Shown: piece by piece, positions 2,596 to 42,265 of the stretch
How the letters are laid out: each line of letters begins with the position of its first letter
Position numbering within the stretch: position 1 is the first letter of the stretch
Origin: Balanoglossus misakiensis
Taxonomy: Eukaryota > Animalia > Hemichordata
Direction: 5' to 3'
Assembly: GCA_040954595.2 (NCBI GenBank)
Contig: CM082596.2
Location: 5,778,791 to 5,842,790 of the forward strand
DNA: 64,000 bases
Translations under genes and position numbers: made by a program
Notes under the pieces: generated by a model
What the model saw: only the letters and a program-made list of their open reading frames with translations
Database searches by the model: none
Told to the model about the DNA's origin: nothing

Positions 2596-5500
2596 TCATT
2601 TGAAACTGGTCGGTTCGTAGGCAATGTTGTCATGGAAACCCGACTCCTCGACACCGTCTCCGATTGTTGAGTAATACACGTCACTTTCTTCGCAATCTGG
2701 TGTGCGAGAGCTGTCTGGATTTCGACCGCCATCGTCCGCACCCTCGTATAGAATGTTCTCCTTGGACTTGAATTCTGATTCTGGATTTATGTCATCCCCA
2801 CGTTCATGGGTATCGGTGTCTGTATCTTCATACAGAACGTTCTCCGTGAATTGGGGTCCAGAATTCTGGAGTTCACGGGCACCGTCGTCTGTATCTTCGT
2901 AGAGAACGTTCTCCGTGAATTGAGGCCCAGAATTCAGATGCTCATCGTTGTCTGCATCTTCATACAGAACGTTCTCCGTGAACCGAACGGCAGATTTGGG
3001 ATGAGCATCGCCATCGCCAATATCGTTGTAAACGACGCCTTCGACAGAGGATGAACCGCGCGGTATGTTACCCTGCTCCGGGTCGTGACTTGCTTCGTAC
3101 AAAATGTTATCTGTAAACGTGACCCCTGGTTGATGTGTGCTGTTGTTGTAATTCCCGTGATGTGCACCATTATCAGTAAATCCGGTTTTGGAAGCGCCTA
3201 CATCCGGGAGTTGGGCGACACCAGATTCGGCATAGTCGTACGCCAGATCACCATCCGCCACTGCACTTTGGATGGGCAAATTGTCAGCAACGACACCACT
3301 GTGTGTGTTTTGCTTCTGTTGGGGACTTGCTTGCGGCCGGTGTCCATGGTAACCGCCAACCTCCGCGTAAGCGTGTGCATCTTGTGCGTCGTCGACCTCA
3401 TCAGCGCCTTCGTAGATTTCGTTGTTTTTGAACCCGACATCATGCTGTTTTCCCGGTGGATTGTTACTGTTCACTCCGTGGTTAGTTTTAGGGTCGACTG
3501 CGTACGCGCATTTCTCTCGCCCATCCTCGGACTTATCATTGATAACATAACGAGAATCTCGTGCATCGACGTCATCAGTCGAGCTTTCGCCACCGATGAC
3601 GTAATCAGCATTTCCGAAAGAGAAGGAATTTGATGCATGATCATGAACTGGGAGCTGTGTATGAGGGTTTAGGTTGTTTTTGGTGTTGTTGAGATTCGCA
3701 CTTTTCGTTCCAAATTCGGAACCACTTTTCCCGATATTGTTAAGTTCATTTTGCACGTTGTTGGCATCGGGTTTATCTCTCTTGCTGCTTGAAAGAAAGA
3801 AAGAAAGAAAGAAAGAAGAAGAAGGAGAGAGAGAGAGAGAGTGAGAGAGAGAAGAAAAATTGTGAATCAAAGATGTATGGCTGAATGATCACTGTGACGC
3901 AATCTCTCTATTAGTAACACATATAATGGATTGCGGTATTAAAAAGACACCTATCTGTCTACCAATATACATGTACATGGTATTAGAGGTCGTTGGGAAC
4001 AGAAATCTCTTTGTCACACCGAAATATAATAGGCTTGTTTGTTGTATTGGTGGTGATGATAATTAACATTTACCTTCTCCGAAGTAAAAGTATGACTATT
4101 CCAATACTGACCACAATAATTACCAACGCCAACAAACTTATGGCAATGATAGCTGAGAATATGAAAATATGAAAAGAAGAAAAACGCATTTATTCAAGGA
4201 GTATGATCCATATGATACACTAGAATACAAATAATTTCGTGAGAATGTCAGTCATACTCATCCACTGTTGTGTGTATTGGATTTCCATTTTTTCCTTCAG
4301 AAAATGCCCAGTACTCAGTATACGTAGTTTTGCCCTTGAAAATTCAAATGTTATAGAGCAGTTGTACAGATGAACCACATATGTTTTAGTGACCTCTAAA
4401 TAGTGGGCATTTTTATAGTACTGTACATCCCGGTGAAGTCAATGCATGTGTATATAAATTGACATACATGTATATATAAAGGCCACCTGTCTATAAAGAA
4501 ATGTTCTGCCTTACCTATGATAGTATCACTGTTGCTGTCTGTAACAAAAGACAAACATGAAAATAGATAACAACGTCAACGAAAAGAAAGGTGCTACCTG
4601 GGCAAATGAAGTTTCAGAAGTTTCAGAAATCGCAACCAACTGACATAGTGATGACGTCTTACCAGAAGGCACACAAATGGGTCGTTCACTCCACTCTCCG
4701 TTGGCCTGACAGACAACATAGGTCACATTACTTTCAAAGTAATACCCGTCATGACAATCGTAGACCACAATGTCTTCATAGAGGTACGAGTCGCCAGACT
4801 TCTCGGCATCTTCTACGTCATCAGGTTCACCACAGTTAACGGCTGCTCAGAACGAAAATGATCGTTTAAATTGCAGTATGCATATTGCCAAACTGACGTC
4901 ACCCAAACCCACCATTCCCTTATTAAACGGCATATGTTATTCAGTTTGTTAGTTAGTTAGTGACTCAGTCATTGAGTCAGTCAGTCGCAGTCAGTCAGTT
5001 AGTCAGCCAGTCAGTCAGTTTAATACAAAGAAAGGGTTAACTCTACTTCGGGAGTGGAACAAAACAGACAGGCCCAACACAGTATAAAATTAAATTGAAT
5101 TGATGAATTGAATTAAGTTGAAAACCTACGTATGCACTCAGGCACATCTCCACTCCAAAGTCCACTGGAAAGACAAGTTATTGTCTCAGTTCCGTTCAAA
5201 GAGTATCCTTCCTGACACTTGTAGGTCACATTGCTACCATAGGTGAAGTCATCACCATTTGATTCGCCGTTTTCTGGCTGACCTGGGTCACCGCATGTTA
5301 CAGCTGTTGAAACAAAAGAGTGTCAATCATACAAATTACATGTATGTGAATTGTGATATGAAGGTGTATATTATTGTATCTCCACTGACAGCTGCATATT
5401 TTCACGAACTTCAACGTTAGAACAAGAAGGTAATAAGTGTTAAAGAAACGCCCTTTTGAAACTTAAATTGAAAACCTACGTATGCACTCAGGCACATCTC

Positions 5501-8840: not shown

Positions 8841-10819
8841 CACGATCTGTTTCTGGGTTTAGGGTTCGAGCAGCTGACGTTATGTTGATTAGGGCCTATC
8901 TACTTTAAAACAAAACTATCACGGTGATTTTGGTCCTTCACCTTGATCACCTCCAGGTCTCAACAAAAGAACCGAGAGGATTTCGAGTCAAAATGCGCAA
9001 TAGCTTGCGATGAAATCCCGGGTGGGCTACATGCGTTTAATCTGAAATGAGACAGAGGAACTCGAACTATGGTAGAAGGACGGTGGCACATGATCAAATA
9101 TTGGCCATGAATAATGGGATAACATGTCACAAATATGTAACGAATTAATCACGCTTATAAAGGAGTGATTTTTGACCTGTACATGTTTGCGTATCCCAAG
9201 TATCTGAAACACATATCTGTTATTTAAAGAAATACAGTCACATCTAATTTGCATGTGCCCATGAACTGGTCATTGGAAAAAAAAAACATTGTACTCCACA
9301 AATGGATTAATTGTCTGTTATATAGTGACACCTCTGGGACCAGAAACCCTGTCTTTAATATAGAGAGGTGTCCTTAATATATATATATCCACCTGATTTT
9401 GCAGGTATCATTCATTTCCGGTGAAAGAGGGCGCATTTCAATATGGCGGCGGCCATCGGCATATCACCTGTGAGACCGAAATATGATTTCAAGGAGGTTC
9501 CCTGCCGAAATTTACACGCCTTGGCTTAGCGAAGATGACATGGAAAAGGTTTTTAACACAGTCCATCCATTTTGTGTGTTGGCGACTGACAACAACTTGT
9601 TATATCGCGCGTTTGCCTAATGACGAACATTGGTGGAGCCAGGGACATGATATGCCAAGACCCGTGAATGTGCAGCAGCCTGCAGTCAAACCATTACGAG
9701 CGGTGGACTTTGAATTCGCGGGAAATATACAGGGTAAGTTCTATTTGCGTGTATTTATGATATCATAGCATGACAAAGTGGGTAACTACGTTCACCATTG
9801 CCATGTGTTTGTCAGAGTATGCATGGCGTTACTGTCTGGATTGATGGCTTTGGCAGGACTCGTTAAACACGTAAGGTAGTAAATTTGATAGAGCTGTTTT
9901 CTATATTTGTATATACTTGATAGCTTCAATCAAAATAAGTAATTATTTGTAATTTGTAGTACAAGGAGATGGCTACTTGTTAATCACAAAACCTATTGGT
10001 GAATAATTAATAGAAATTTCCAAATAAAATAAATGGTTTCCAAAACACAACTGATAATACTTTTGTGAAAACAACTGGGGCCAAAGAAAGTTGAAATGAG
10101 CCTGATAAAACCATAACATATTCCAAAATGATATAAGAATGTTCTAAAGGCTAAACAACAAAAGTTACAGCCTAATCCACAGAAATAGTGTTTTGAGCGA
10201 AGGAACAGTAGTTATAATATTTGATATTTTCAGTGTTTGTATTCTTTGGTTTCTTGTGCCAGTCACTGAATACTGGCTACATCAACAAGTTGTAGAGACA
10301 AGAACAAGAAACTCCAATCTGTAAAGAGAATAAAAATACTACCCATTTCCTCAACATTCTTTTGACCCTTGAATATAACCTATGTTTATTTCAGATGGAC
10401 ATAAGCATGTGAAAATGTATTGCACAGTTTGTGTTTGTCGTTTTTGTTTCTCGAGCACTTAAATCAAGCACACTGACACTTGGCATTTGATTTTGAACCT
10501 ACAGGTCAGATCTCCAAACGTGAAGAGACAGAAAATGCCAGCAGAGATGATTTGGACAAGTTGGTTCAAGAAGACCAAAAGAGAATGGCAGTTGAAACCA
10601 AGTTTGTCTTTGTAGAATTTTGTTGTTGTAAATTTTACTCCAAGAACATTCACGTAAATTTGTGCGATGTGTTATAAGTAGATGGAGAAATGTACCCCTG
10701 GAAAATTTCCTAAATTTCATAGAGAAAATTTAACCTTAGCAAGTTGGTTCAGTCACTCACGCTACCATGAATTGTGGATTTGTTTGTTGATCATTTATTC
10801 TGACTACTCCTTGATAGGA

Positions 10820-13165
10820 ATTTTGGTCACCTTCAGCATTTTCATGTTATGTGCATTGATTCTACCTTGTACACACTGAGATATTGACCAATTCTTGAGT
10901 TTGTGAATTTTGGTCACCTTAATCATTTTCATGTCATGGATTCTACCTCATACATGCTCAAATAATGACCAATTCTTGAGTTTGTGAATTTTGGTCACCT
11001 TCAGCATTTTCATGTCATATTCATTGATTATAGCTCATACATGCTCAAATAATGACCAATTCTTGACTTTGTGAATTTTGGTCACCTTCAGCATTTTCAT
11101 GTCATATGCAGGGATTATAGCTCATACATGCTCAAATAATGACCAATTCTTGACTTTGTGAATTTTGGTCACCTTCATCATTTTCATGTCATATGCAGGG
11201 ATTATAGCTCATACATGCTCAAATAATGACCAATTCTTGACTTTGTGAATTTTGGTCACCTTCATCATTTTCATGTCATATGCAGGGATTATAGCTCATA
11301 CATGCTCAAATAATGACCAATTCTTGACTTTGTGAATTTTGGTCGCCTTTAGCATTTTCATGTCATATGCAGGGATTATAGCTCATAGACACTCAAATAA
11401 TGACCAATTCTGGACTTTGTGAATTTTGGTCACCTTCAGCATTTTCATGTCATATGCAGGGATTATAGCTCATAGACACTCAAATAATGACCAATTCTTG
11501 AGTTTGTGAATTTTGGTCACCTTCAGCATTTTCATGTCATATGCAGGGATTATAGCTCATACACACTCAAATAATGACCAATTCTTGACTTTGTGAATTT
11601 TGGTCGCCTTCATCATTTTCATGTCATATGCAGGGATTATAGCTCATACTCACTCAAATAATGACCAATTCTTGACTTTGTGAATTTTGGTCACCTTCAT
11701 CATTTTCATGTCATATGCAGGGATTATAGCTCATACATGCTCAAATAATGACCAATTCTTGACTTTGTGAATTTTGGTCGCCTTTAGCATTTTCATGTCA
11801 TATGCAGGGATTATAGCTCATAGACACTCAAATAATGACCAATTCTTGAGTTTGTGAATTTTGGTCACCTTCAGCATTTTCATGTCATATGCAGGGATTA
11901 TAGCTCATAGACACTCAAATAATGACCAATTCTTGAGTTTGTGAATTTTGGTCACCTTCAGCATTTTCATGTCATATGCAGGGATTATAGCTCATACACA
12001 CTCAAATAATGACCAATTCTTGACTTTGTGAATTTTGGTCGCCTTCATCATTTTCATGTCATATGCAGGGATTATAGCTCATACATGCTCAAATAATGAC
12101 CAATTCTTGAGTTTGTGAATTTTGGTCACCTTCATCATTTTCATGTCATATGCAGGGATTATAGCTCATACTCACTCAAATAATGACCAATTCTTGACTT
12201 TGTGAATTTTGGTCACCTTCATCATTTTCATGTCATATGCAGGGATTATAGCTCATACATGCTCAAATAATGACCAATTCTTGACTTTGTGAATTTTGGT
12301 CGCCTTCATCATTTTCATGTCATATGCAGGGATTATAGCTCATACTCACTCAAATAATGACCAATTCTTGACTTTGTGAATTTTGGTCACCTTCATCATT
12401 TTCATGTCATATGCAGGGATTATAGCTCATACATGCTCAAATAATGACCAATTCTTGACTTTGTGAATTTTGGTCGCCTTTAGCATTTTCATGTCATATG
12501 CAGGGATTATAGCTCATAGACACTCAAATAATGACCAATTCTTGAGTTTGTGAATTTTGGTCACCTTCAGCATTTTCATGTCATATGCAGGGATTATAGC
12601 TCATAGACACTCAAATAATGACCAATTCTTGACTTTGTGAATTTTGGTCACCTTCATCATTTTCATGTCATATACAGGGATTATAGCTCATACACACTCA
12701 AATAATGACCAATTCTTGACTTTGTGAATTTTGGTCACCTTCTTGACTTTGTGAATTTTTGTCACCTTCATCATTTTCATGTCATATGCAGGGATTATAG
12801 CTCATACATGCTCAAATAATGACCAATTCTTGACTTTGTGAATTTTGGTCACCTTCATCATTTTCATGTCATATGCAGGGATTATAGCTCATACATGCTC
12901 AAATAATGACCAATTCTTGACTTTGTGAATTTTCGTCACCTTCATCATTTTCATGTCATATGCAGGGATTATAGCTCATACATGCTCAAATAATGACCAA
13001 TTCTTGACTTTGTGAATTTTGGTCATCTTCAGCATTTTCATGCCGTGTGCATCAATTCTACCTTGTACACGCTGAGATATTGACCACTTCTTTACTTTGT
13101 GAACTTTGGTCACCTTCTTGACTTTGTGAATTTTGGTCACCTTCAGCATTTTCATGTCATATTCA
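10820..13165 (+). repeat. 87-bp tandem array, ~27 copies (left arm)
   Basis: Unit GGTCACCTTCATCATTTTCATGTCATATGCAGGGATTATAGCTCATACATGCTCAAATAATGACCAATTCTTGACTTTGTGAATTTT; period checked at 11081/11168. Confidence 0.97.
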
Positions 13166-13760
13166 TGGAGTATAGATCAAATACTCTCATATATACCGGT
13201 AATGCATGTAAACTTTTGGTCGTGAGCGAACTTAAGTGAAAGACTACAACAAGACTAGTAAAAAGTGTAAAATCTTTACCAAATCCGGTATTCATCATTG
13301 TGGATGGAAGAGAATAAGCTGAGAATATTCTCAAGCTTCAAGATCTGGCTTGTCAAAAAGCAAAGTGAGTACAAATTTTATCACCATTTTCATTGAAGGA
13401 AGCAAGAGAAAGTTGGAGTTTAGGCTTGCAAGGTCTAGATCAAAATTATTGAAGAGGCAAAAGGGAAAGCAGTTTCTGCTTTGTGTCGTAGAGGGCGTGT
13501 GTTGAATTGTGTCAACCGTTCCTTGAGCAGGTTTTAGTGCGCTGAAGCTCGCAATAGAATTGTTTGTGCAATCTACTTAATTAACATGTCGTAGAAAGAC
13601 TGTTTCGGATCAAAACAACCGTTCATTGAATAATATAAACCGTTTATTGAATAATATAAGCGTTCAACAGAAATTATGCTTGTTCAACGTGTTGTAGATA
13701 GTCTTCAAAACGTGTCCAAACAAATCGCTAAGTACAAATGAAGAACGTCACAACTTTAAA
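13165..13760 (+). pseudogene. Decayed intronless ORF of unknown function inside the foldback element
   Basis: From ATG 13165: MEYRSNTLIYTGNACKLLVVSELK*KTTTRLVKSVKSLPNPVFIIVDGRE*AENILKLQDLACQKAK*VQILSPFSLKEARESWSLGLQGLD, frameshift, KIIEEAKGKAVSALCRRGRVLNCVNRSLSRF*... Protein-like composition with isolated stops; no homology recognised. Confidence 0.4.
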
Positions 13761-14219
13761 AAAAAAACGAAAAGTCGCACAATATTTTCGTATTTTGGAA
13801 TTGAAAATGTACAGTTCGCAACAAAAGATGCGTTTCCGCGATCCTTGATTTTAAATTGTCGTGTCTCCGCGATCACCGTTGACGTGAATTAGTGTATTTC
13901 ATCGATCTGTTCAAAGTGTAGACACTTCGTCCCCTCCATCGTTTTTTTTTTACAAAAGTTAGATTTATCGTGAGAATTAATGCATGATTAAATTCCAAGT
14001 GTCGGGTTGTTGTTTTTTGAAATCGGAGAGAGGTATTTGTCGCTTGTAATTTGTTATTAATTCTGCCAATTGTATTTTTTGCTGTCTGCTGTTAAGTTGT
14101 ATATTAAGTGTATATTTTTACCGCTTCTGTGTCATGTACATTTAAATCCTGATTTAATTAAATAAAGAATGAAATGCATGTAATAATAAGTTTTGCAGCG
14201 GAAGTTATTGATCGAAATT

Positions 14220-14275
14220 AGGCTCGGTTTCATTATAGTTGGTATAACAATACTGACTATAATGAAACCGAGCCT
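14220..14275. repeat. Perfect 20-bp-stem hairpin, mirrored at 15781-15836
   Basis: AGGCTCGGTTTCATTATAGT-N16-ACTATAATGAAACCGAGCCT present in both inner arms. Confidence 0.9.
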
Positions 14276-14344
14276 TATTTATTTTTTTTTAAATTTCACG
14301 AGTCTGATCATAATATAATACTTTTGAAGTCTTGAAGTTCGTGA

Positions 14345-14416
14345 GTCACCGTGGCTCAGTGGTTAAGACGTTAGACTAACGATCGCAGGACTGGGGTTCG
14401 AATCCCCCTGCTGACT
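14345..14416 (+). ncRNA. tRNA-like Pol III unit A (AAC at anticodon position; imperfect cloverleaf)
   Basis: A box TGGCTCAGTGG, B box GGTTCGAATCC, acceptor GTCACCG/TGCTGAC, TTTT at ~14439; D and anticodon stems are mismatched. Confidence 0.7.
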
Positions 14417-14525
14417 CAACTTTCCCTGAAAAAAATATCTTTTAGCTTCCAAGTGTCTCAGTTTTCCAAGTCAACTAGGCAATCTGATGTATAAGTACAA
14501 GTTAAAAGTAAGCTTATCTCGAGGA

Positions 14526-14961
14526 AGCACCGTGGTCTAGTGGCATTGTCGCTGGGCTGATGACTGTATGGACAGTATTGGTGCGGGGTTCGAATCCCGC
14601 TGCTGACTCAACGCTCGGACAGGGGAACTATTGGCTTGCGTACCAGTGGCTGTGCGTAGACGGTGCTATTGGCTTGCTGTCAGTAGCTGTGCGTAGAGGG
14701 CGCTATTGGCTTGCTGTCAGTAGCTGTGCGTGGAGGAGCTATTGGCTTGCCTGTCAGTAGCTGCGCGGTATGGGCTTTCATAGAAGAGTATCGCTTGTAC
14801 GGGGATTGACGAGCCATCCCTGTGGTGTGCTTTGAATCCGTTCAGTAGGCCTTCTGTGGTAAGCCCAGCTCTACTATGCCTATCTATGTTTCCGGGCGAG
14901 AGTAAAAATAAATTAAATGAAAGAAAAAAATAAGCCCCTTCGGGGGTTGTTTAATTTTTTT
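14526..14961 (+). ncRNA. Putative ~430-nt tRNA-headed Pol III RNA (unit B, left)
   Basis: A box TGGTCTAGTGG, B box GGTTCGAATCC (head 14526-14608), four ~37-bp repeats, G-U-rich stem domain 14770-14867, A-rich tract, C(UUCG)G hairpin 14934-14947; first run of 4 or more T is T7 at 14955-14961. Confidence 0.55.
14628..14765 (+). repeat. ~37-bp tandem repeat x4; ~5 inverted copies at ~15255-15430
   Basis: CTATTGGCTTGCTGTCAGTAGCTGTGCGTAGA(C/G)GG(T/C)G; each unit contains ATTGG/CCAAT. Confidence 0.92.
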
Positions 14962-14978
14962 CCCAGCGGATCTAAAAA
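14955..14978. terminator. Adjacent Pol III-type oligo-T terminators for convergent units
   Basis: T7 on + (14955-14961) and T5 on - (14978-14974); each is the first T4+ downstream of its tRNA-like head. Confidence 0.5.
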
Positions 14979-15531
14979 TTTCTGGAAGTCTGGACTTAGT
15001 AATTTTTTTTTGCCCTTCTATTGGCTTGCGGTCAGAGGTCACGGGTATTCCCGTGACAAAGCTAGTCCCCAGAGGACATATTGTCTTGCGGGCAAATGGA
15101 TAACTACCCAGTTAGAGCTTATTAATGGTTAAGAAACCATTTGACATTTGAAAGTCAATAAGCTCATACTGGGCACTTAGCCATTGGCCCGCAAACCAAT
15201 ATCTCCTCTAGGCACTAGCTAATGGACCGCAAGCCAATAGCTCTTTTTTTTGGGCACAGCTACTGACAGCAAGCCAATAGCACCGTCTACGCACAGCTAC
15301 TGACAGCAAGCCAATAGCGCCCTCTACGCACAGCTAATGACAGCAAGCCAATAGCGCCCTCTACGCACAGCTAATGACAGCAAGCCAATAGCACCGTCTA
15401 CGCACAGCCACTGGCACGCAAGCCAATAGTTCCCCTGTCCGAGCGTTGAGTCAGCAGCGGGATTCGAACCCCGCACCAATACTGTCCATACAGTCATCAG
15501 CCCAGCGACAATGCCACTAGACCACGGTGCT
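14974..15531 (-). ncRNA. Putative ~555-nt tRNA-headed Pol III RNA (unit B, right) with a long branched hairpin
   Basis: Head 15531-15449 mirrors 14526-14608; then 37-bp repeats, ~220-nt imperfect hairpin 15240-15018, A9 tract, and first T4+ on this strand at 14978-14974. Confidence 0.55.
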
Positions 15532-15640
15532 TCCTCGAGATCTACTTACTTTTAACTTGTACTTATACATCAGATTGCCTAGTTGACTTGGAAAACTGAG
15601 ACACTTGGAAGCTAAAAGATATTTTTTTCAGGGAAAGTTG

Positions 15641-15712
15641 AGTCAGCAGGGGGATTCGAACCCCAGTCCTGCGATCGTTAGTCTAACGTCTTAACCACTG
15701 AGCCACGGTGAC
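15641..15712 (-). ncRNA. tRNA-like Pol III unit A, mirror copy
   Basis: Reverse complement of 14345-14416. Confidence 0.7.
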
Positions 15713-16364
15713 TCACGAACTTCAAGACTCCAAAAGTATTATATGATGATCAGACTCGTGAAATTTAAAAAAAATTAATAAGGCTCGGTTTCATTATAGT
15801 CAGTATTGTTATACTAACTATAATGAAACCGAGCCTAATTTCGATCAATAACCCTCGCTGCACAACTATTATTATTACATGTATTTCATTCTTTATTTAA
15901 TTAAATCAGGATTTAAATGTACATGACACAGAACCGGTAAAAATATACACTTATATCACGGTTACTAGAAGAAGTCTAGAAGACAACGACAACATTCTAA
16001 AAAACAATATTCAAATGAAAAACACTCAGTCAGAATAGAGCGAAAATAAATACAATGTGATTTACGCCACTTTAAGGACTACTTTCACCAAAGTAGGAGA
16101 GCGTTTTTGTCAGGTAGAAATTTTGGCGACCGGGGGTTTAAACACCCACATCGCAGCCCAAAGTAAAAAAAACATTAAGATTTTTATCCCACATCGATCT
16201 TTTTTGACGTCGCCCATCATAAAATGTCCAAATAACCGAAAATTCACGTCAACGGTGATCGCGGAGACACGAGAATATTTGCTGCAAAGCGTATTTTTCA
16301 ATTAAAATGCTCCGACAATTTAAAATAAAGGATCGCGGAAACGCATCTTTTGTTGCGAACTGTA

Positions 16365-19300
16365 GAGCTATAATCAATGAATATGACATGAAAATGATGA
16401 AGGTGACCAAAATTCACAAAGTCAAGAAGGTGACCAAAATTCACAAAGTCAAGAATTAGTCATTATTTGAGCATGTATGAGCTATGATCCGTGAATATGA
16501 CATGAAAATGCTGAAGATGACCAAAATTCACAAAGTCAAGAATTGGTCACTATTTGAGCATGTATGAGCTATAAACCCTGCATATGACATGAAAATGCTG
16601 AAGATGACCAAAATTCACAAAGTCAAGAATTGGTCACTATTTGAGCATGTATGAGCTATAAACCCTGCATATGACATGAAAATGATGAAGATGACCAAAA
16701 TTCACAAAGTCAAGAATTGGTCATTATTTGAGCATGTATGAGCTATAATCCCTGCATATGACATGAAAATGATGAAGATGACCAAAATTCACAAAGTCAA
16801 GAATTGGTCATTATTTGAGCATGTATGAGCTATAAACCCTGCATATGACATGAAAATGATGAAGATGACCAAAATCCACAAAGTCAAGAATTGGTCATTA
16901 TTTGAGTGTGTATGAGCTAGAATCCAAGAATATGACATGAAAATGATGAAGGTGACGAAAATTCACAAAGTCAAGAAGGTGACCAAAATTCACAAAGTCA
17001 AGAATTGGTCATTATTTGAGCATGTATGAGCTATAAACCCTGCATATGACATGAAAATGATGAAGATGACCAAAATTCACAAAGTCAAGAATTGGTCATT
17101 ATTTGAGTGTGTATGAGCTAGAATCCAAGAATATGACATGAAAATGATGAAGGTGACGAAAATTCACAAAGTCAAGAAGGTGACCAAAATTCACAAAGTC
17201 AAGAATTGGTCATTATTTGAGCATGTATGAGCTATAATCCCTGCATATGACATGAAAATGATGAAGGTGACCAAAATTCACAAAGTCAAGAATTGGTCAT
17301 TATTTGAGCATGTATGAGCTATAATCCCTGCATATGACATGAAAATAATGAAGGTGACCAAAATTCACAAACTCAAGAATTGGTCATTATTTGAGCATGT
17401 ATGAGCTATAATCCCTGCATATGACATGAAAATGATGAAAGTGACGAAAATTCACAAAGTCGAGAATTGGTCATTATTTGAGCATGTATGAGCTATAATC
17501 AATGAATATGACATGAAAATGATGAAGGTGACCAAAATTCACAAAGTCAAGAAGGTGACCAAAATTCAGAAAGTCAAGAATTGGTCATTATTTGAGTGTG
17601 TATGAGCTATAATCCCTGCATATGACATGAAAATGATGAAGGTAACCAAAATTCACAAAGTCAAGAATTGGTCATTATTTGAGCATGTATGAGCTATAAT
17701 CAATGAATATGACATGAAAATGATGAAGGCGACCAAAATTCACAAAGTCAAGAATTGGTCATTATTTGAGCATGTATGAGCTATAATCAATGAATATGAC
17801 ATGAAAATGCTGAAGGTGACCAAAATTCACAAAGTCAGGAATTGGTCATTATTTGAGCACGTATGAGCTATAATCCCTGCATATGACATGAAAATGCTGA
17901 AGATGACCAAAATTCACAAAGTCAAGAATTGGTCATTATTTGAGCATGTATGAGCTATAATCCCTGCATATGACATGAAAATGCTGAAGGTGACCAAAAT
18001 TCACAAAGTCAAGAATTGGTCATTATTTGAGTGTGTATGAGCTATAATCCCTGCATATGACATGAAAATGATGAAGGTAACCAAAATTCACAAAGTCAAG
18101 AATTGGTCATTATTTGAGCATGTATGAGCTATAATCCCTGCATATGACATGAAAATGATGAAGGTAACCAAAATTCACAAAGTCAAGAATTGGTCATTAT
18201 TTGAGCATGTATGAGCTATAATCAATGAATATGACATGAAAATGCTGAAGGTGACCAAAATTCACAAAGTCAGGAATTGGTCATTATTTTAGCATGTATG
18301 AGCTATAATCCCTGCATATGACATGAAAATGCTGAAGGTGACCAAAATTCACAAAGTCAAGAATTGGTCATTATTTGAGCATGTATGAGCTATAATCCCT
18401 GCATATGACATGAAAATGATAAAGATGACCAAAATTCACAAAGTCAAGAATTGGTCATTATTTGAGCGTGTATGAGCAATAATCCATGAATATGACAAGA
18501 AAATGCTGAAGGTGACCAAAATTCACAAAGTCAAGAATTGGTCATTTTTTGAGCGTGTATGAGCTATAATCCATGAATATGACATGAAAATGATGAAGGT
18601 GACCAAAATTCACAAAGTCCAGAATTGGTCATTTTTTGAGCGTGTATGAGCTATAATCAATGAATATGACATGAAAATGATGAAGGTGACCAAAATTCAC
18701 AAAGTCAAGAAGGTGACCAAAATTCACAAAGTCAAGAATTGGTCATTATTTGAGCATGTATGAGCTATAATCCCTGCATATGACATGAAAATGCTGAAGG
18801 TGACCAAAATTCACAAAGTCAAGAATTGGTCATTATTTGAGTGTGTATGAGCTATAATCCCTGCATATGACATGAAAATGATGAAGGTAACCAAAATTCA
18901 CAAAGTCAAGAATTGGTCATTATTTGAGCATGTATGAGCTATAATCCCTGCATATGACATGAAAATGATGAAGGTAACCAAAATTCACAAAGTCAAGAAT
19001 TGGTCATTATTTGAGCATGTATGAGCTATAATCAATGAATATGACATGAAAATGCTGAAGGTGACCAAAATTCACAAAGTCAGGAATTGGTCATTATTTT
19101 AGCATGTATGAGCTATAATCCCTGCATATGACATGAAAATGCTGAAGGTGACCAAAATTCACAAAGTCAAGAATTGGTCATTATTTGAGCATGTATGAGC
19201 TATAATCCCTGCATATGACATGAAAATGCTGAAGGTGACCAAAATTCACAAAGTCAGGAATTGGTCATTATTTGAGCATGTATGAGCTATAATCCCTGCA

Positions 19301-20060
19301 TATGACATGAAAATGCTGAAGGTGACCAAAATTCACAAAGTCAGGAATTGGTCATTATTTGAGCATGTATGAGCTATAATCCCTGCATATGACATGAAAA
19401 TGCTGAAGGTGACCAAAATTCACAAAGTCAGGAATTGGTCATTATTTGAGCATGTATGAGCTATAATCCCTGCATATGACATGAAAATGCTGAAGGTGAC
19501 CAAAATTCACAAAGTCAAGAATTGGTCATTATTTGAGCATGTATGAGCTATAATCCCTGCATATGACATGAAAATGATAAAGATGACCAAAATTCACAAA
19601 GTCAAGAATTGGTCATTATTTGAGCGTGTATGAGCAATAATCCATGAATATGACAAGAAAATGCTGAAGGTGACCAAAATTCACAAAGTCAAGAATTGGT
19701 CATTTTTTGAGCGTGTATGAGCTATAATCCATGAATATGACATGAAAATGATGAAGGTGACCAAAATTCACAAAGTCCAGAATTGGTCATTTTTTGAGCG
19801 TGTATGAGCTATAATCAATGAATATGACATGAAAATGATGAAGGTGACCAAAATTCACAAAGTCAAGAAGGTGACCAAAATTCACAAAGTCAAGAATTGG
19901 TCATTATTTGAGCATGTATGAGCTATAATCCTTGCATATGACATGAAAATGCTTAAGATGACCAAAATTCACAAAGTCAAGAATTGGTCATTATTTCAGC
20001 GTGTACAAGGTAGAATCAATGCACATAACATGAAAATGCTGAAGGTGACCAAAATTCCTA
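16365..20060 (-). repeat. 87-bp tandem array, ~42 copies, inverted relative to 10820-13165; degenerate copies at ~20575-20750
   Basis: Reverse complement of the same unit, with occasional 26-bp partial duplications (AAGAAGGTGACCAAAATTCACAAAGT). Confidence 0.97.
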
Positions 20061-21579
20061 TCAAGGAGTAGTCAGAATGAATGATCAACAAACAAATGTT
20101 AATCCACAATTCATGGCAGCGCGAGTGACTGAACTAACTTGCTAAGGTTAAATTTTCTCTGTGAAATTTAGGAAATTTTCCAGGGGTACATTTCTCCATC
20201 TACTTATAACACATCGCACAAATTTACGTGAATGTTCTTTGAGTAAAATTTACAACAACAAAATTCTACAAAGACAAACTTGGTTTCAACTGCCATCCTC
20301 TTTTGGTCTTCTTGAACCAACTTGTCCAAATCATCTCTGCTGGCATTTTCTGTCTCTTCACGTTTGGAGATCTGACCTGAAGGTTCAAAATCAAATACCA
20401 GGTGTCAGTGTGCTTGATTTGTGTGATTGAGAAACAAAAATGACAAAAACATACTCTGCAATATGTTTTCAGGTAACAGACTGCAAGAAACCCCTGGAAC
20501 TTGATGTTAGGTACCCATTGGGGAATTTCAATATAGATGTTTAAATGAATTACACCATTGCACTATACATTGAACCTTTTTGAGAGCGTGTATAATTCAC
20601 AAAGTCACAAATTGGTCATTTTGGAGTGTGTATGAGTTAAAATCTATGCACATGACATGAAAATGCTGAACATGACCAAAATTCACAAAGTCAAGAATTG
20701 GTCATTTTTTGAACGTGTATGAATATCCATGCATATGGCACGAAAATGCCTAATAAATAAAGCATTAGATGCATACAGGGGTATTACATGTATGGCTGAC
20801 AAGATCTTGTTTATTGCTAGACATGTGCGAGATTATCTTTTGAGGTGCAACAGTTGTCTATTAAATGACGTGCGAGTGGACCATTTTTGATTGATTTATA
20901 ATTGGTTACACAAATGACCGACACATTCAATTACTTTGTAAAATATTTTGATATGTATATAAATATGAATGGGGGCTAAAGAAAAAAATTGTAAATTCTT
21001 AGGGGGCCATCAATTTTTGTCATAACGTTTTAGGAGGGGGGCACGGAAAAAATCCTCCAGCACCCACCCACCCCTGGAAGTATTTTCTGAACACTCCCTA
21101 TACAAGTTTGGCAGTGTTTTTTTGTTGTTTTGACAAATTATTTACACATAGTGACTATATTGTTTTTCAACATCAAATAAATTTGACAAGTTTCACAGTT
21201 TGGGTATATCATTTTCAGTATTTTGATTGTAAATTGAACATGAAGCGGGATATTTCATCTCAGCAGAAGTTATTATTGACAAAACAACAAAAACTCTCCA
21301 AGAAAAATTACATACATGTATTTTGTAAACATTTACTGAGCAATAAAATCATTTCAGTGAAACAGCTGTCATGTGCACTGAAATACACTGTGCACACCAT
21401 GGGCATTTACGCATTATATTCTTCCTATCAATTTAACCGGCCTATAACTTATCTATTATTATACTAGGAACAAAATAACCCACTTTTGGGGTGTTCTCCG
21501 TAGACTTTGCGTTGTTTTTACCCCCGCATTTGCGAGCAAACATACTCAAACTGGACTAGAACTTTCACTTGGCCCTGCG

Positions 21580-21669
21580 TGCAGGTCTGTGTGTGCTCCC
21601 GGCGTTACGCGTGTAACACCGGTAGCACATTACACGCGTAACACCGGTAGCCCAGTGCACAGACCTGCA
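21580..21669. repeat. Short imperfect palindrome, probable MITE remnant
   Basis: TGCAGGTCTGTG...GTTACGCGTGTAA...TTACACGCGTAAC...CACAGACCTGCA. Confidence 0.55.
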
Positions 21670-23053: not shown

Positions 23054-25823
23054 GCACCAATCACAGCCGGAATTGACGCATATTAGACCCTGTCCGCAAA
23101 CAGCTGTTCGACATTGCCAACTGCAATGTACTATAGTATAGCAAGCTGCCCGTTTTTAAGTGGTATGGATGATCACATATACGAGTATGAGAATCAAATG
23201 AATTCCTTCCTTTGTTTCTGTAAAGTTTGGTACATGTATATTATAATAAGTCATTACAATCAGAATACTACTATTGTTTTTCCAGGATTAAAAGGGGAGG
23301 ATTTCTGAATACCACGCATGGGTCAAGGGTTAAAAGCGTGGGTTCAAAATTAAAAAGATGGGCAGCTGCATATATATAAATTGTGGATCTGCTCACACCA
23401 TTCATATGTTACATTGAAATATTTTTTCATTCTTATAGCCCTTCTACATTGCCCTTGAAGAATTCAAGTTCCGGAACGACACAGAAGAGAAAAGGAAAGG
23501 AAAGGTATTTGATGATTATATTATTAAATATTATACCAACCTTGATATGCAAATTGATAAATCAATGAACATATGTGATGGACACTGCAACCACATGTGG
23601 CAGTGAGTACGAAACACATACAGGTAATTGAGGTGATAGGTTATATGTGATATGTTATTTGAAATGTACAATGTCATTGAATGTAACTGTGTTGTGTTTA
23701 ACACAGACCAGGTCATGCCCCGAGGTGACACAATGTCAGATGACAAACGCCTTTTCTCAAGAGGAAATCCATTATGTTTTTGATAACTGCGATATTTACA
23801 ATTAAAGGCCTGATATGGAAACGTGCGGCCATATCACATTTTCGTGACCTTTTTAAGGTCAAAATAATTATGTCACTGCCATACAAATCCACAGCGACAT
23901 TTACAATCAAAATTAAAAGGAGTCAATCAGAGTCTAAACAACAAAACCATTCATTGTGCCAATGCACACTTTGCATCATTGGAATGAGCCAATCACTGTG
24001 ACTGTTTCACGATTATTTGAATACAGATCCATGTTACTGGCAGTGCAATTAAGAAGGAAACCAAAACAGACATCGAGTTCCAAGTCCTGAGAAACGGGAC
24101 ACTCAAGTTTCTCATCACCGGAATTAAGGACAATGTAGGTACTGCCATCGCATTATTGCAACGCAGATTAACTGAGGTATGTAGTCAAATAATTATGCTT
24201 TTTCTTTGGCCCTTCCGATTCCTTGCGGCTGTGGATTCAACCAAATCATCCATTGAACTTAATCAGTTGTGAAAGGGTTTCATCGGTGATTAGAAAGAGT
24301 GGGCAAAAATTCTATGATTTTCTGTATAATGATGATGATGATGGTGGTGATGATGATGATGGCGACGATGATGATGATGGTGACGATGATGATGATGGTG
24401 ATGGCGACGATGATGATGGTGGTGATGATGATGATGGCGGTGGTGATGATAGAATGAAAAGAACTGTTTTGAAAACCAATTTCTGTTTCTCTTTAATAGC
24501 AAAGACGTCAAGTAACAGAAAACTTGCCGGATGGAGTCTCAGCACTGACCGTTGACAATCTACGAAAACACAACCAGGCGTTGACTGAAAGGAGGGAGTT
24601 TGGCTGTGAACCATGTGACAACGTCTACTGGAGAAAAGTGTTCGCGTACAAACCGGTGGCTAAGTATGTCCATCTGAGCGGAGTTCAAATCTTACACCAC
24701 TACCTGTCTTTGTAGCCATGGCTACCAATCATTTTGTTGTACATGTACACTTCAAAGACACATGTCCATTTCCCATGTTTATCACAAGTTGTGACAACAC
24801 GTCTAATCTTAACCATTGAGGTGAGAATTCTGCTGTTTGCAGAAACAGATGACAAATAATCAGACCAAATAAATGTAGAAACTTGCAGAACAAATTACTG
24901 ATAAGTGACATGTAGTCAACTGGGTAAATGTGTCATTTTCCAGACTTTATGGAAAAGTCAACAGACCATACAAATGCAAGTCCAGACACACACGATCAGA
25001 AATGAAGTCCCTCGCTTTTCCAATAAATATCTGACTGTTTTTTCTGTTTCCAGGTGCGATAAATGTGGGATTTGCTACGACGCCATTCCCAAAGATCAGG
25101 AATATGGCCTGGGAACTTATGAATGCTCAAGTTGCAATAGAAAATTCACAGGGAGGGCCAGAGCTGATGTGCCGGCAATGTGTTACGAATGCCACGTCAT
25201 GGTGAGAATTCTCTTCTTTAGAATTTTTCATTTCCTGAAATAAAGTTGAATAATAATAATAAATAAAACTGAATTTGAGCAGAGTGACACTGAGCAAGAA
25301 ATGTGCAAGAAGCCTTAGTTTAGTGGGAACACCAGCAAACACACAGTTTGGAATATTGTTTAGTTCAGTCCTTTTGTCGACAGAAGAATTCCTTACTCAG
25401 GAATTTTGTATCGATCCCAGTGGACTATCACAGATGGAATAATTCCCCACCCATCCCGTTCTTAATTTTGCGAATGATTATTATTATTTTTAGGTAAGGC
25501 CGACAAACATCGGGCCTAGACCACGCAGCGGACCCAGACGTAGTCGATACATCCACAGCTGTCAAGCGTGCCACAATGGTACGATCCGACCATGTCCGAT
25601 GTACAAGAGGGTGGTTGTGGCCAGCAAGGTGCACCAGAGCACGGGGAGCACCGTCTCCAGTTTTCTGTCGCAGCTGTCGGACATCTATTACCCGCCTCTC
25701 ATGCAACAAGTCGACGGCAATGCCTTGCCTGCCCCGCCCAATCCTGAATCGGCCGTCGCCATGACCGCGACCGAGGCCAGTCCCGCTGTGGAAGTCGAAG
25801 CTGAAGTTGAAGCCGCAGAGTAA
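22980..25823 (+). CDS. SHFL: Shiftless antiviral inhibitor of ribosomal frameshifting homologue (RyDEN/C19orf66 family), ~291 aa
   Basis: Exons 22980-22997, 23439-23504, 24027-24176, 24500-24663, 25054-25201, 25494-25823 splice in frame. Family pattern: LTVDNLRKH, EFGCEPCDNVYWRKV, KCDKCGICYDAIP, GLGTYECSSCNRKFTG, CYECH, HSC, HQSTGSTVSSFLSQ. Confidence 0.88.
24329..24450. repeat. Intronic (GAT/GGT/GAC)n trinucleotide repeat
   Basis: Direct reading; lies in SHFL intron 3. Confidence 0.92.
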
Positions 25824-28291: not shown

Positions 28292-28398
28292 TCAATCTGA
28301 TTAAAATCAGATGTAGGGAACGGCGACGTGTTTTTTTGTATGTTGTCGCCTCAAAAAACCACGTCGCCGTTCCCTACATCTGATTTTAATCAGATTGA
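28292..28398. mobile_element. 107-bp hairpin MITE with target-site duplication
   Basis: ~47-bp TIR TCAATCTGATTAAAATCAGATGTAGGGAACGGCGACGTG; flanked by AGTCAGCA (8 bp), or AAGTCAGCAT (10 bp) if the ends are 28293/28397. Confidence 0.88.
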
Positions 28399-33300: not shown

Positions 33301-36300
33301 TGCGTTGTGTCTATGTATACTACTGCACTGACTTGCCCCCCCCCCTTTGTCTACGAGTCTGTCTCTCTCTCTCTCTCTCTAATCACACACATACATACAC
33401 ACACGCACACTAGATTCTTACCTGTGCATAATCCCCAATTTCAAAGTACGATCTGCCAATCTGACAAAGAACCCACGAAGTGTTGTAGTGGTGCATGGGC
33501 AGGTGGTTAAACAACGCGATGGCCTTCTTACAGTCGTACTGGCTCAGCATAAGGTAGGCCTTGCCGATGTCTCGCAGCAAATTCATCAGCCCCTCTGAAA
33601 AGTCAAAGCAATACATTCAGTAAATAAAACATAGCGTGGCCCCATTTAGGGATTACATAGGAAAAGGTCTAGACTGGTATACATGTACACACATACAGAC
33701 AGTCCCATGGTATATATACATATACCCCATGGGACCTAATAAAATTATTTTATCTTAAATGTATAAAACATGAAATAGAAAGCTCAGTGTTTTTCCTAAA
33801 ATTGGCGGAGGCTAGTAAATGAACTAGGAACCTTTATGAAACCGCCTCTGCATTCAGAGACTGGACTTCAAACAGAACGACAATTATCTTTTTTTTTTGA
33901 GAAATAGAAAGACAATATCATAACATACCAACAGACGCCTTTTGATAACTTTGTATCTGGGCAACACTTGGAGTCTGTAGTATCGATTTACTGTTGTTAT
34001 CCACCGTGGGAGTTCCTTCGTTCTTACTCATGTCGATCTGCTCTGATGTGATCGTCTTTGAACTCCTGGTTTTCGTTTTTCGTGTCGGGGCTTTCGGCGA
34101 TGAGAACTTACTCTTTGTGGGCGCTTTCTTGGCTGCATTTTCCTAAAAAACCACAGCAGATGAAGAAAACAAATCACAATGGCCTCTAATAAGCATATAA
34201 TTAACATATACCCATATATAGTCAAAGGGTATATCCAAGTCTAAGAAAGACCATGTACTGGAACATTTTTTGATTTTCGCATGGCTACACATGAAACTCT
34301 GTAATGGTTAGATCTTTTCTCCATTTTTCATTACCGAGTAAATGTCCTAACAACAGAGCCAATTCAAGTTCACTGGAGTCAAGAAATGCTAAAGCGAAAC
34401 TGTACTTTTTGTCTTACCTTGACTGAATTAGAACTCCCAAATAAACGGGAACTCCGACGGACACCCTGTGCAAATAAAACCTGCTGTGGTGCATTACTGA
34501 AAACAAAACAAAATGAAACAGGTTACATACATTGAAAAAAAAACAACCAACTGCACTTTCTTCAATATATGATGTTTGCAATGGAAAACATCCTGTCTGA
34601 TATATTCAACTTAGTCTAGATATCTATACGTTCGTAGTCGCATTCACCCTACTACCGTCTAGGACCGCAGAGCCAAAATCTAGTAAGGCCATAAAAATGG
34701 TAATTTGAATGGGAATAGTCTCCAACTGAGCAGTCTGACGTCAGAGAAGTCAATCACTTACGTTGACCGACTACTGATTGGCCGTGAGGTGATGACGTTG
34801 AATGTTAATTATGTTTACAATGTAGCTCCGCCCCGAATGATACATAATCATGATCACGTGGTGACGCTTGACATCAGATTGCTCAGTTGGAGACTATTCA
34901 CATTCAACTTACCATTTTTATGGCCTTACTAGATTTTGGCTCTGCGGTCCTAGACGGTAGTAGGGTGAACGCGACTCCGAACGTATAGATATCTAGACTA
35001 TATTCAACTCAAAGACTCTTTTTTTCTGAAGTTCATTTTTTCCCACAATCAAAAGTTCTTACCTTAATTGTGGACTTGGTGTTTGACTCATTGTGATCGG
35101 CAAGTCTCTAGTTGTGTTGCTGCTGTTCCCTGATTGGGCAAACACCGGTTTTGTTGTGGTTGCGCTCTGATTTCGACGAGGTAGGGTCTGTCGAAAATCA
35201 CAAAGTGAGAAAACAATACAGAGAAATCAGATCACTTTGTCACCAATTTAAGGTAATAACTTGTCTCATTTCCGTTATGGAGAATAACATTATTTGTTAC
35301 TAATATACACGCATTATGTATTTTGATACCTACAATGAAGTTACTACAGTCAAACCTGTGTTAGTGGCCACCTCAGTGAAAAATTGTCTATAGTGACCAC
35401 TTTGTTGCAAAATTACATATGAATGAACTTACTTTCTTTGGTGCAGTGATCTGGGAGTCAATAATTGCAGTCGGCGATGGCGTGACGTACGACGTCGGCC
35501 CTTCCCCGGGGCTGGGTGTGTCTAACGGCAAGATGCCGAAACTGGGCGTGAGGGGACTGAGCGAGTTGGTGCCCCCCAGCAGGCTTCGGCCGACCCTGGG
35601 ACGAGTGCGACTGGCTCCCCGACTGACCATGTTGATGGAGGTCATGGCCTCCGGGGTTGCCATGTTACTGTCGTTGAAGCTCGGTTCGTGGGTGGTCGAC
35701 GACGTGTCCGGGGAGGCCATGTTGGAAGCCTCTTTCATGATTCCTTGCGGGCATGGAGTTGGTAGGTTTGCAACAGGGGTGGATTCCTACAAACACAGCA
35801 GCAAAAGTAGAGTTATTATTCAAGAAGAACGGGACATACCCATGCTTCATGATTTTAAAATCAAATCAGCAAATTTTTAGTTTCATGGGGAAAGATCAGT
35901 TGACTGAAACCAAATGAACAGACCATACACAGCAACAAGTACATCTACAACTCAGACATAAATTTACAGAGACTCTGACAAATGAAACTTGATTACCTGT
36001 GACATTTCTGATGTTGTGGACGCCACCTCAGAAGGTTGGCTGGTATTGGCAGTGTGCACGCTGGGATAGCAATATGACTGACAACTGGAAAAGTTTGGCA
36101 ATGACGACACTTGGAAAATCTTGTTAGGATCTGGTTTTTCACCTGTTGACAGAGATGTGAACCGAGAAAAGCATCAGACTTCTGTAGTCAGCAATCAGTT
36201 TTCAAAGGCTATTTCAACTTGGTTAAATTGAGGATTATATTTTAATGACAAAGTTTCTAATACAGGCATAAAATTTACTACATAAACCCATAATATACAT

Positions 36301-42100: not shown

Positions 42101-42184
42101 CTCCACCTTACGACGGTGAATGTGGAATGCCTTCTCCTTGTCTCGCCTGGTAATACTTCTAATTTCTCGATGGTGCTGAAGCAT
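39142..42184 (-). CDS. Intronless CFAP97D/hemingway (KIAA1430-domain)-like ciliary protein, interrupted near the 3' end by a transposon
   Basis: Motifs HRRKV, AHATIDN, PAVDNKTPTSFAHLRLKK, KIVEENKQQFERLLRI, ERIARENLELFRRVE..RSFYD resemble the CFAP97D family (recognised from memory). Removing 39187-41281 joins ...TLDDYK to QHLRRVNEISKFRM* (stop 39144-39142), giving 315 aa; as it stands the ORF stops at 41144. Confidence 0.7.
39196..41281. mobile_element. 2.1-kb non-autonomous foldback (Mutator/FB-like) transposon with minisatellite TIRs and 9-bp TSD
   Basis: TSD TTTATAATC at 39187-39195 and 41282-41290; termini GGGTCCGTGAAGTTTGTTAC / GTAACAAACTTCCAACACCT; arms ~39203-39993 and ~40778-41273 built of 45-bp outer and 32-bp inner units with TTATTCC subrepeats in opposite orientation. 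Confidence 0.88.
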
Positions 42185-42265
42185 CTTGAACGTCTTGGGA
42201 ACTCGGATTATCCAAAAACGCGACCGGAATCCCGTCCTTACGTCTGACCACAGTCACTGCGCGTA

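Follow-up and report, generated by a model that had tools for sequence, protein, structure and literature searches.

A candidate pair of convergent, tRNA-headed Pol III units within a broken inverted repeat of Balanoglossus misakiensis

Introduction

Pol III promoters of small-RNA genes are already known from SINEs and from direct-repeat LTR elements (Cassandra, Helenus and Ajax), and adenovirus VA RNAs are viral Pol III RNAs comparable to the TMERs. BC1, as set out in the accessible text of its description, is carried by few genes and combines a tRNA-derived 5' part, an A-rich stretch, a 3' stem-loop and a Pol III terminator, where the A-rich tract binds poly(A)-binding protein (PMC4923876). 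Cassandra, Helenus and Ajax are judged not likely to code for a functional RNA in the available portion of the report on them (PMC10886601). For SINEs, the accessible part of the SINEBase account sets a criterion of at least 100 interspersed copies and treats A and B boxes as an indication only (PMC3531059).

Here we analyze a stretch of 64,000 nucleotides from the hemichordate Balanoglossus misakiensis (assembly GCA_040954595.2, contig CM082596.2, positions 5,778,791 to 5,842,790 of the forward strand), referred to as the window. The initial annotation proposed that the window holds a Pol III-type gene pair with a common 5' scaffold and different 3' parts, a proposal supported by the layout described below, with no Rfam family at threshold. 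At a probability of roughly 0.5, we read the element as a low-copy family of putative Pol III genes of tRNA origin, duplicated at the DNA level and linked tail to tail.

Results

The putative units occupy the centre of a large inverted repeat. Its inner arms (14105-14767, plus strand; 15290-15953, minus strand) are 96.4% alike over 666 columns. Each outer arm consists of an 87-bp minisatellite array and a unique flank domain. The left outer arm (10410-13193, plus) is multi-copy by contig depth and carries a flank domain of ~400 bp (10410-10817) that includes an exon-like piece, and the right outer arm (16361-20471, minus) holds its array at 16361-20057, with an extra array fragment nearby at 20594-20749. 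Aligned as 10410-13193 and 20471-17676, the outer repeat, which is mostly 87-bp array, is 90% alike. Outer and inner arms are separated by a multi-copy left spacer (13194-14104) and by a right spacer (15954-16360) that is mostly unrelated to it. Comparison of 13193-14104 with 15954-16360 reveals only two common pieces, of 52 and 36 bp; the left spacer has a right-arm counterpart only for 13810-13890 and none for 13890-14095. What had been annotated as a giant palindrome does possess inner and outer inverted arms, but it is not continuous, as the arms are broken by unrelated spacers.

Inspection of both inner arms confirms the annotated order of a short tRNA-like unit followed by a second head and 37-bp repeats. 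These repeats amount to 3.9 and 4.7 copies in the two arms, with ~4 units at 14629-14767 (plus), each containing a reversed CCAAT-box-like motif, and ~5 units at 15254-15429 (minus). In every unit of both arrays TGACAG stands 4 bases before CCAAT on the outward-facing strand, an arrangement that we take to resemble a TALE-homeodomain plus NF-Y composite site; judged by these motifs, the arrays could serve as an outward Pol II promoter array. The arms also carry a 54-bp DNA hairpin with TTA on both sides (14221-14274; mirror copy 15782-15835), probably a tiny MITE-like insertion. Both copies, flanked by TTA/TAA, presumably resemble a very small Harbinger-type MITE.

Four tRNA-like heads with A and B boxes, two per arm, begin at 14345 and 14526 on the plus strand and at 15712 and 15531 on the minus strand. 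Using standard A-box and B-box consensus sequences, nine B-box-like matches were found in the 64-kb window, and an A box lies upstream of only four, namely all four heads described here. Head 1 (14345-14417) opens a short unit of head, A7 tract and T4 with a predicted RNA of 99 nt (14345-14443, plus), and the right copy of this unit (15614-15712, minus) is identical. Head 2 (14526-14612, plus), with intact A and B boxes and without a cloverleaf, is likewise identical to its right copy (15445-15531, minus). Heads 1 and 2, flank included, agree at 85 of 135 columns (63%). The layout is that of a type-2 Pol III gene, with A and B boxes at workable spacing and T4+ downstream. Canonical tRNA genes, with a cloverleaf that passes tRNA detectors, these are not: head 1 scores 24.6 bits against the Rfam tRNA model (E 0.0046; gathering score 29), with mismatches in the D, anticodon, acceptor and T stems and with the D and anticodon stems broken, head 2 is absent from the Rfam tRNA matches, and ARAGORN returns no tRNA gene.

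The sequences around the heads are shared between units and between arms. Upstream of head 1 (14303-14344, plus), TCTGAT lies at -42 and a TATA-like motif near -31; TCTGAT recurs at -43 before head 2 (14483), and the likeness of the two flanks has a p value of about 0.02. The 240 bp upstream of head 1 are common to both arms. When the arms are compared, no difference event falls in the 178 bp of heads, as against 17 in the 458 bp of flank, spacer and repeats (Fisher p 0.005). Gene conversion in a palindrome can also explain the identity of the heads, since the spacer between them has only 1 event in 106 bp. Contigs from three runs (X1, X2 and X3) of one sample, none recorded as RNA, were also compared. 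Another copy, represented by an X1 contig, has 10 differences in all, of which 9 are listed; 8 of these 9 map to the inter-head spacer, a concentration that is not significant alone (p 0.16-0.32). The loose ends of three X1 contigs at 15723-15724 (minus) present two other tRNA-like 5' ends after the same upstream flank, about 18 bp behind it; these heads, among 12 of 40 loose ends, were judged by eye on 30 letters each.

The first T4+ runs after head 2 fall at 14955-14961 (plus) and 14978-14974 (minus), which bears out the annotated convergence of terminators across a gap of 12 bp. The predicted RNAs measure 433-436 nt on the left and 557-558 nt on the right, in line with the species of ~430 and ~555 nt proposed earlier, and 99 nt from each head 1 to T4. 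Convergent first terminators at most 30 bp apart occur in 3.8% of 20000 core shuffles, and T4 is absent in 33% and 16% of shuffles. That is to say, terminator placement is better than chance, but modestly so. Within the bodies of the two long RNAs, each of the 4 homopolymer runs consists of A, not T, on the predicted strand. An A-tract precedes the terminator in both units, as annotated. The left tail (14904-14961, plus) comprises an A-rich tract with AATAAA (14907), a C4-TTCG-G4 hairpin (14935-14946; loop C-UUCG-G) and a T7 terminator (14955-14961), and the right tail (14974-15011, minus) comprises an A9 tract (15011-15003), a weak hairpin and a T5 terminator (14978-14974). Of the two small terminal hairpins annotated, the left is retained (z -2.8) but the right is not significant (z -0.5). 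Each of the statistics that favour Pol III genes is of modest weight (p 0.005-0.04), and the choice of several followed inspection of the sequence.

Downstream of the repeats, the left 3' domain (14768-14900, plus) is predicted as a weakly supported, G-U-rich multibranch fold, with z -1.0 over 128 nt and z -3.0 on a 96-nt stretch that was picked after folding (mean pair probability 0.66). Its single contig change (14868) lies outside the closing stem. An origin of this domain from decayed 37-bp repeats was rejected (score 38; shuffles 33 +- 6.6). Rfam gives no match to the left domain, and a search with the element at E up to 1 or 10 yielded nothing at gathering score and none of the vault, Y, SRP, ribozyme or miRNA families. 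Hammerhead, HDV-like and twister motifs were compared by eye against consensus sequences and showed no fit.

The right 3' domain (15017-15240, minus) is a 224-nt imperfect rod with two side hairpins, which folds with z -18.4 on the minus strand and z -14.4 on the plus strand. When the basal extension is included, 94 of 107 pairs have a probability above 0.9, and the longest helix spans 16 bp. The rod arms align to the 37-bp repeat consensus with scores of 88.5 and 56.5, above shuffle maxima of 45 and 41.5; the 5' arm extends the array without loss of phase through ~2.7 units in decayed form, of which the 3' arm is an inverted copy. Left and right do differ, as annotated, but the right part does not qualify as an independent domain, being built from its own 37-bp repeats. 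Because the right domain is an inverted copy of the repeats of its unit, a DNA-level origin of the structure is possible.

The foremost rival explanation takes this origin further and holds that the element is structured DNA debris, any RNA from it being incidental. The heads would be relics of promoters that were duplicated recently and that gene conversion has kept similar, the 37-bp repeats would be CCAAT-like protein-binding sites of transposon DNA, and the rod would be either the centre of an old palindrome or a MITE-like one. The alignment of the rod arms to the repeats favours this explanation, as do a true foldback with a 10-bp TSD elsewhere in the window and the placement of 12 of the window's 32 CCAAT-like motifs in the core, where they are borne by repeats and hence are not independent. 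Direct repeats of 9 bp that flank the rod (at 15004 and 15244) point the same way; however, the rod ends beside them do not match, with 5 and 3 unpaired bases, and its first unit keeps the phase of the young array. Folding of the rod is favoured by 18 kcal/mol on the predicted strand, a difference matched by 5 of 150 simulated decayed palindromes. In contrast, three control palindromes are nearly symmetric in energy per strand (-258.9/-257.8, -75.0/-74.8 and, for the third, -54.3/-60.5). Against the Pol III-gene reading, in turn, count the facts that the rod folds nearly as well on the other strand and is made of repeat units.

Mismatches and copy differences in the rod were also considered. 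Its oppositions on the minus strand are three G-G, three G-T, two C-T and one each of A-C, A-G, A-A and T-T. The annotated conversion of C-A mismatches in the right hairpin to G-U on the minus strand fits the three G-T oppositions; one A-C is present, and the minimum-energy fold contains two G-U pairs. Transition-type mismatches have a share of 0.33 in the rod and of 0.33, 0.20 and 0.33 in the control palindromes of the window (n=3). Mismatch type was dropped as a sign of RNA selection because the controls have a like spectrum, and this likeness to other palindromes of the window, two of them with direct repeats at their ends, is a further point for DNA debris. In the version common among contigs, the rod forms 87 pairs at -136.8 kcal/mol, versus 89 pairs at -141.6 kcal/mol in the window. 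Of the changes listed for this one alternative version, two break pairs and one lies in a loop, and no compensatory pair change was seen; that copy differences weaken the rod again favours debris. What debris leaves unexplained are the perfect boxes of both head 1 and head 2 despite disagreement at 37% of their columns, the other heads behind one flank, and the convergent terminators. We consider this explanation possible, if somewhat unlikely.

Pairing beyond the rod is suggested by its 3' end, which is predicted to form a 16-nt duplex with a left repeat at -25.7 kcal/mol, far weaker than the rod itself. One more ambitious explanation would combine this with the varied heads in a mobile DNA cassette encoding modular Pol III RNAs, in which one promoter flank serves interchangeable heads and a repeat scaffold carries different 3' domains, the right RNA acting as antisense regulator of the left repeats. 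Such a cassette strikes us as unlikely; if true, it would be an animal, non-viral counterpart of VA and TMER RNAs placed in inverted repeats, of which no description was found.

Contig depth was used as a rough guide that gives no copy number. Flank-identical X1 and X2 contigs (557-1134 bp) have depths of 26.5-29.4 (X1) and, as lower values for four of five such contigs, 37-59 (X2); two other X2 flank contigs, with depths of 98 and 178, map to CUB exons that have paralogues. Over the unique core, single contigs reach depths of 140-160 (X1) and 513-700 (X2) and carry 1-3 other letters. Core depth is about 5-12 times that of the exact flank contigs, and up to about 19 times with the lowest X2 baseline. 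By this rough measure the element is present as a few near-identical loci, at low copy. The tail-to-tail joint is common to several copies, since one X1 contig (14723-14998, depth 160) spans both terminators. X2 loose ends at 14972 and 13442 were tried as signs of a left unit with another neighbour and rejected; both lie on GATC sites and begin with GATC, and we read them as ligation junctions. Pattern scans of metagenome contigs with two patterns gave 0 matches. X3, whose library type is unrecorded, covers the region only at the spacers (13456-14175 and 15912-16270), with the core and equally deep neighbours uncovered, and the left cover ends about 10 nt past an AATAAA at 14161. This cover may represent poly(A) RNA of an inward transcript that stops just before the Pol III units.

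The low depth is one of three observations that refute an ordinary SINE inserted twice tail to tail, the others being the lack of TSDs (none of the four unit boundaries has a repeat above 6 bp) and the common upstream flank. To our knowledge, retrocopies do not bring upstream flanks along. Given the missing TSDs, the common flank and the conservation of the heads, the units are better read as genes duplicated as DNA with their flanks. The element lacks the TSD around a head-to-tail unit that marks a retroposed copy, the contig depth of about 5-12 times flank stays, as a rough guide, below the at least 100 copies of a SINE, and as for the SINE requirement of a tRNA identity of 60% across 60 nt, head 1 was scored by model only (E 0.0046).

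A related explanation would make the units source genes of a complex (dimeric) SINE, as BC1 serves for ID elements; such a SINE would consist of head, repeats, body, A-tract and unique tail, with the A-tract used by a LINE reverse transcriptase. The succession of head, A-tract, short hairpin and T-run is that of BC1, a SINE source gene in the accessible text (PMC4923876), the left tail has its AATAAA at 14907, and dimeric and repeat-bearing SINEs exist according to the available part of PMC3531059. On the other side, the depth of about 5-12 times flank, rough guide as it is, lies tens, not hundreds, of times below SINE-family expectation. One contig passes through the left A-tract unbranched, no loose end occurs there among 12 of 40, and a further copy in the window was not found. 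We regard source-gene status as improbable.

As for the carrier, the annotated foldback element agrees with the modular arms but not with the absent TSD and the ragged ends. The long modular inverted arms, internal tandem repeats and non-coding middle of a foldback are all present. No flanking repeat was found at the outer or inner ends of the large inverted repeat, whose outer-arm ends are diverged (about 80% alike) and set in unrelated flanking DNA. The search for TSDs had a positive control in the window, a second foldback (39197-41281) with a clean 10-bp TSD. No transposase family appears in 113 reading frames of at least 62 codons, and inverted duplication of a multi-copy segment fits the large repeat as well as a foldback does. 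Capture of a viral or LTR-type Pol III cassette (TMER/VA-like, or like Helenus with its tRNA-bearing LTRs) is very improbable: TMERs do have stem-loops after a tRNA-like head (accessible text of PMC4337559), and Helenus has tRNA-like sequence in its LTRs and occurs in marine invertebrates (accessible text of PMC10886601), yet the 113 frames hold no viral or transposon protein family, a viral-contig scan left two of three patterns empty and gave four isolated, chance-size matches of 17-20 bp for the third, and heads only 63% alike (85/135 columns) have no polypurine tract, that is no purine run of at least 9, between them.

The rest of the window contains CUB exons, BMS1, a CFAP97-like frame, TPR exons and a UPF0515 gene. 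BMS1, over all exons, is 72.8 and 71.2% identical to the proteins of two hemichordates, the closest among 10 named proteins compared, and 61.0-65.8% identical to those of an annelid, echinoderms, a nemertean, a brachiopod and vertebrates, which points to an acorn-worm host. Among the CUB exons lies a frame of 430 codons (2596-3888, minus) that carries 63-bp repeats and matches no Pfam family. The second foldback, with internal repeats of 45 and 32 bp and its TSD at 39187-39196 and 41282-41291, cuts the 3' end of the CFAP97-like reading frame (41144-42253, minus). At 24021-25820 (plus), KH-domain exons are followed by UPF0515 matches, possibly a KH-UPF0515 antiviral-type gene. We take UPF0515 to be the shiftless/C19orf66 family. 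The exon-like piece of the outer-arm flank domain (10477-10605; mirror 20207-20404) recurs in up to 13 X1 variant contigs, which suggests a multi-copy gene fragment; no homologue of its peptide was found. MITE-like palindromes lie at 34612-35000, 28292-28398 and 21580-21669, the first two with end direct repeats of 9 and 8 bp.

Discussion

If the element is a low-copy family of Pol III genes, its units would have been copied as DNA together with their upstream flank and would lie here tail to tail inside a broken inverted repeat. TFIIIC would bind the A and B boxes and TFIIIB the TATA-like flank, and Pol III would make two 99-nt RNAs, a left RNA of 435 nt and a right RNA of 558 nt. Transcription of the two long RNAs would end face to face, with 12 bp between the stops and so no overlap between the RNAs. 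For the right rod the likeliest origin is a turn-back duplication that took in the last 2.7 repeat units, and the 3' end of the rod would be antisense to the 37-bp repeats of all units. The rod might be cut into small RNAs that match the 37-bp repeats of every unit, in effect a self-limiting loop of a mobile cassette, and the A-tracts might bind poly(A)-binding protein, as for BC1. Should the RNAs have a job, small RNAs from the rod acting against the element's own repeats would be the likeliest one, itself a tentative proposal within the Pol III-gene reading; otherwise the putative RNAs would be transcribed passengers.

RNAs of 99, 435 and 558 nt with fixed ends are thus predicted in a little-studied animal group. 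If the Pol III-gene reading is true, the locus offers a snapshot of how a promoter and a minisatellite can give rise to a SINE source gene or a long hairpin RNA; should it yield no RNA, it is a neat but commonplace repeat rearrangement. No description of such a layout was found in the article texts searched, and a hemichordate repeat catalogued in Repbase, Dfam or SINEBase may yet match the element. The accessible parts of PMC9659126 and PMC11175523 contain nothing on it.

Among known systems, the Tetris foldback resembles the element in having a flank domain, tandem repeats, an inner domain and a non-coding middle in the same order, as far as the accessible text goes; Tetris has TSDs of 8-10 bp, in contrast to an element with none and with arms cut by unrelated spacers, and Pol III units in Tetris are not mentioned in that text (PMC4079207). 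MHV68 TMERs have in common with it Pol III transcription and a tRNA-like head followed by stem-loops, but in the available part of their description they are viral and shorter, with miRNA-size hairpins, whereas the element lies in a non-viral setting (PMC4337559).

Complex or dimeric tRNA SINEs, among which Twin of Culex is reportedly named, differ from the element in that it is low copy, has no TSD and has a common upstream flank; its heads each have their own terminator, and the tail-to-tail pair is copied as one DNA block. Their likeness, in the accessible part of the source, lies in two tandem tRNA-related heads, internal tandem repeats and an A-rich tail (PMC3531059).

BC1 is nearest in RNA layout, its tRNA head, A-tract and 3' stem-loop all being found in the left unit; in the right unit the A-tract is present, with a hairpin that is only weak (z -0.5). 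As described in the accessible text, BC1 is a single gene for an RNA of 150 nt, is expressed and seeds a SINE family (PMC4923876). The element, by contrast, has predicted RNAs of 435 and 558 nt, paired, with tandem repeats and a long rod, and no such family was seen. Cassandra, Helenus and Ajax (TRIMp3) are nearest in logic, each being a small-RNA Pol III promoter in a non-coding mobile element, and according to the available portion of their description they also agree with the element in conserving promoter motifs, losing the tRNA fold and placing the promoter inside repeated ends (PMC10886601). In the same source, the repeated ends of these elements are direct LTRs accompanied by PBS, PPT and a TSD of 4-5 bp, whereas the repeats of the element are inverted and these marks are absent. 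Inverted arms with convergent terminators occur in none of BC1, Cassandra, Helenus, Ajax and the TMERs. If the Pol III-gene reading is true, flank-bearing units copied as DNA in inverted repeats with convergent ends would add a third use of small-RNA-gene Pol III promoters by mobile DNA to those of SINEs and direct-repeat LTR elements.
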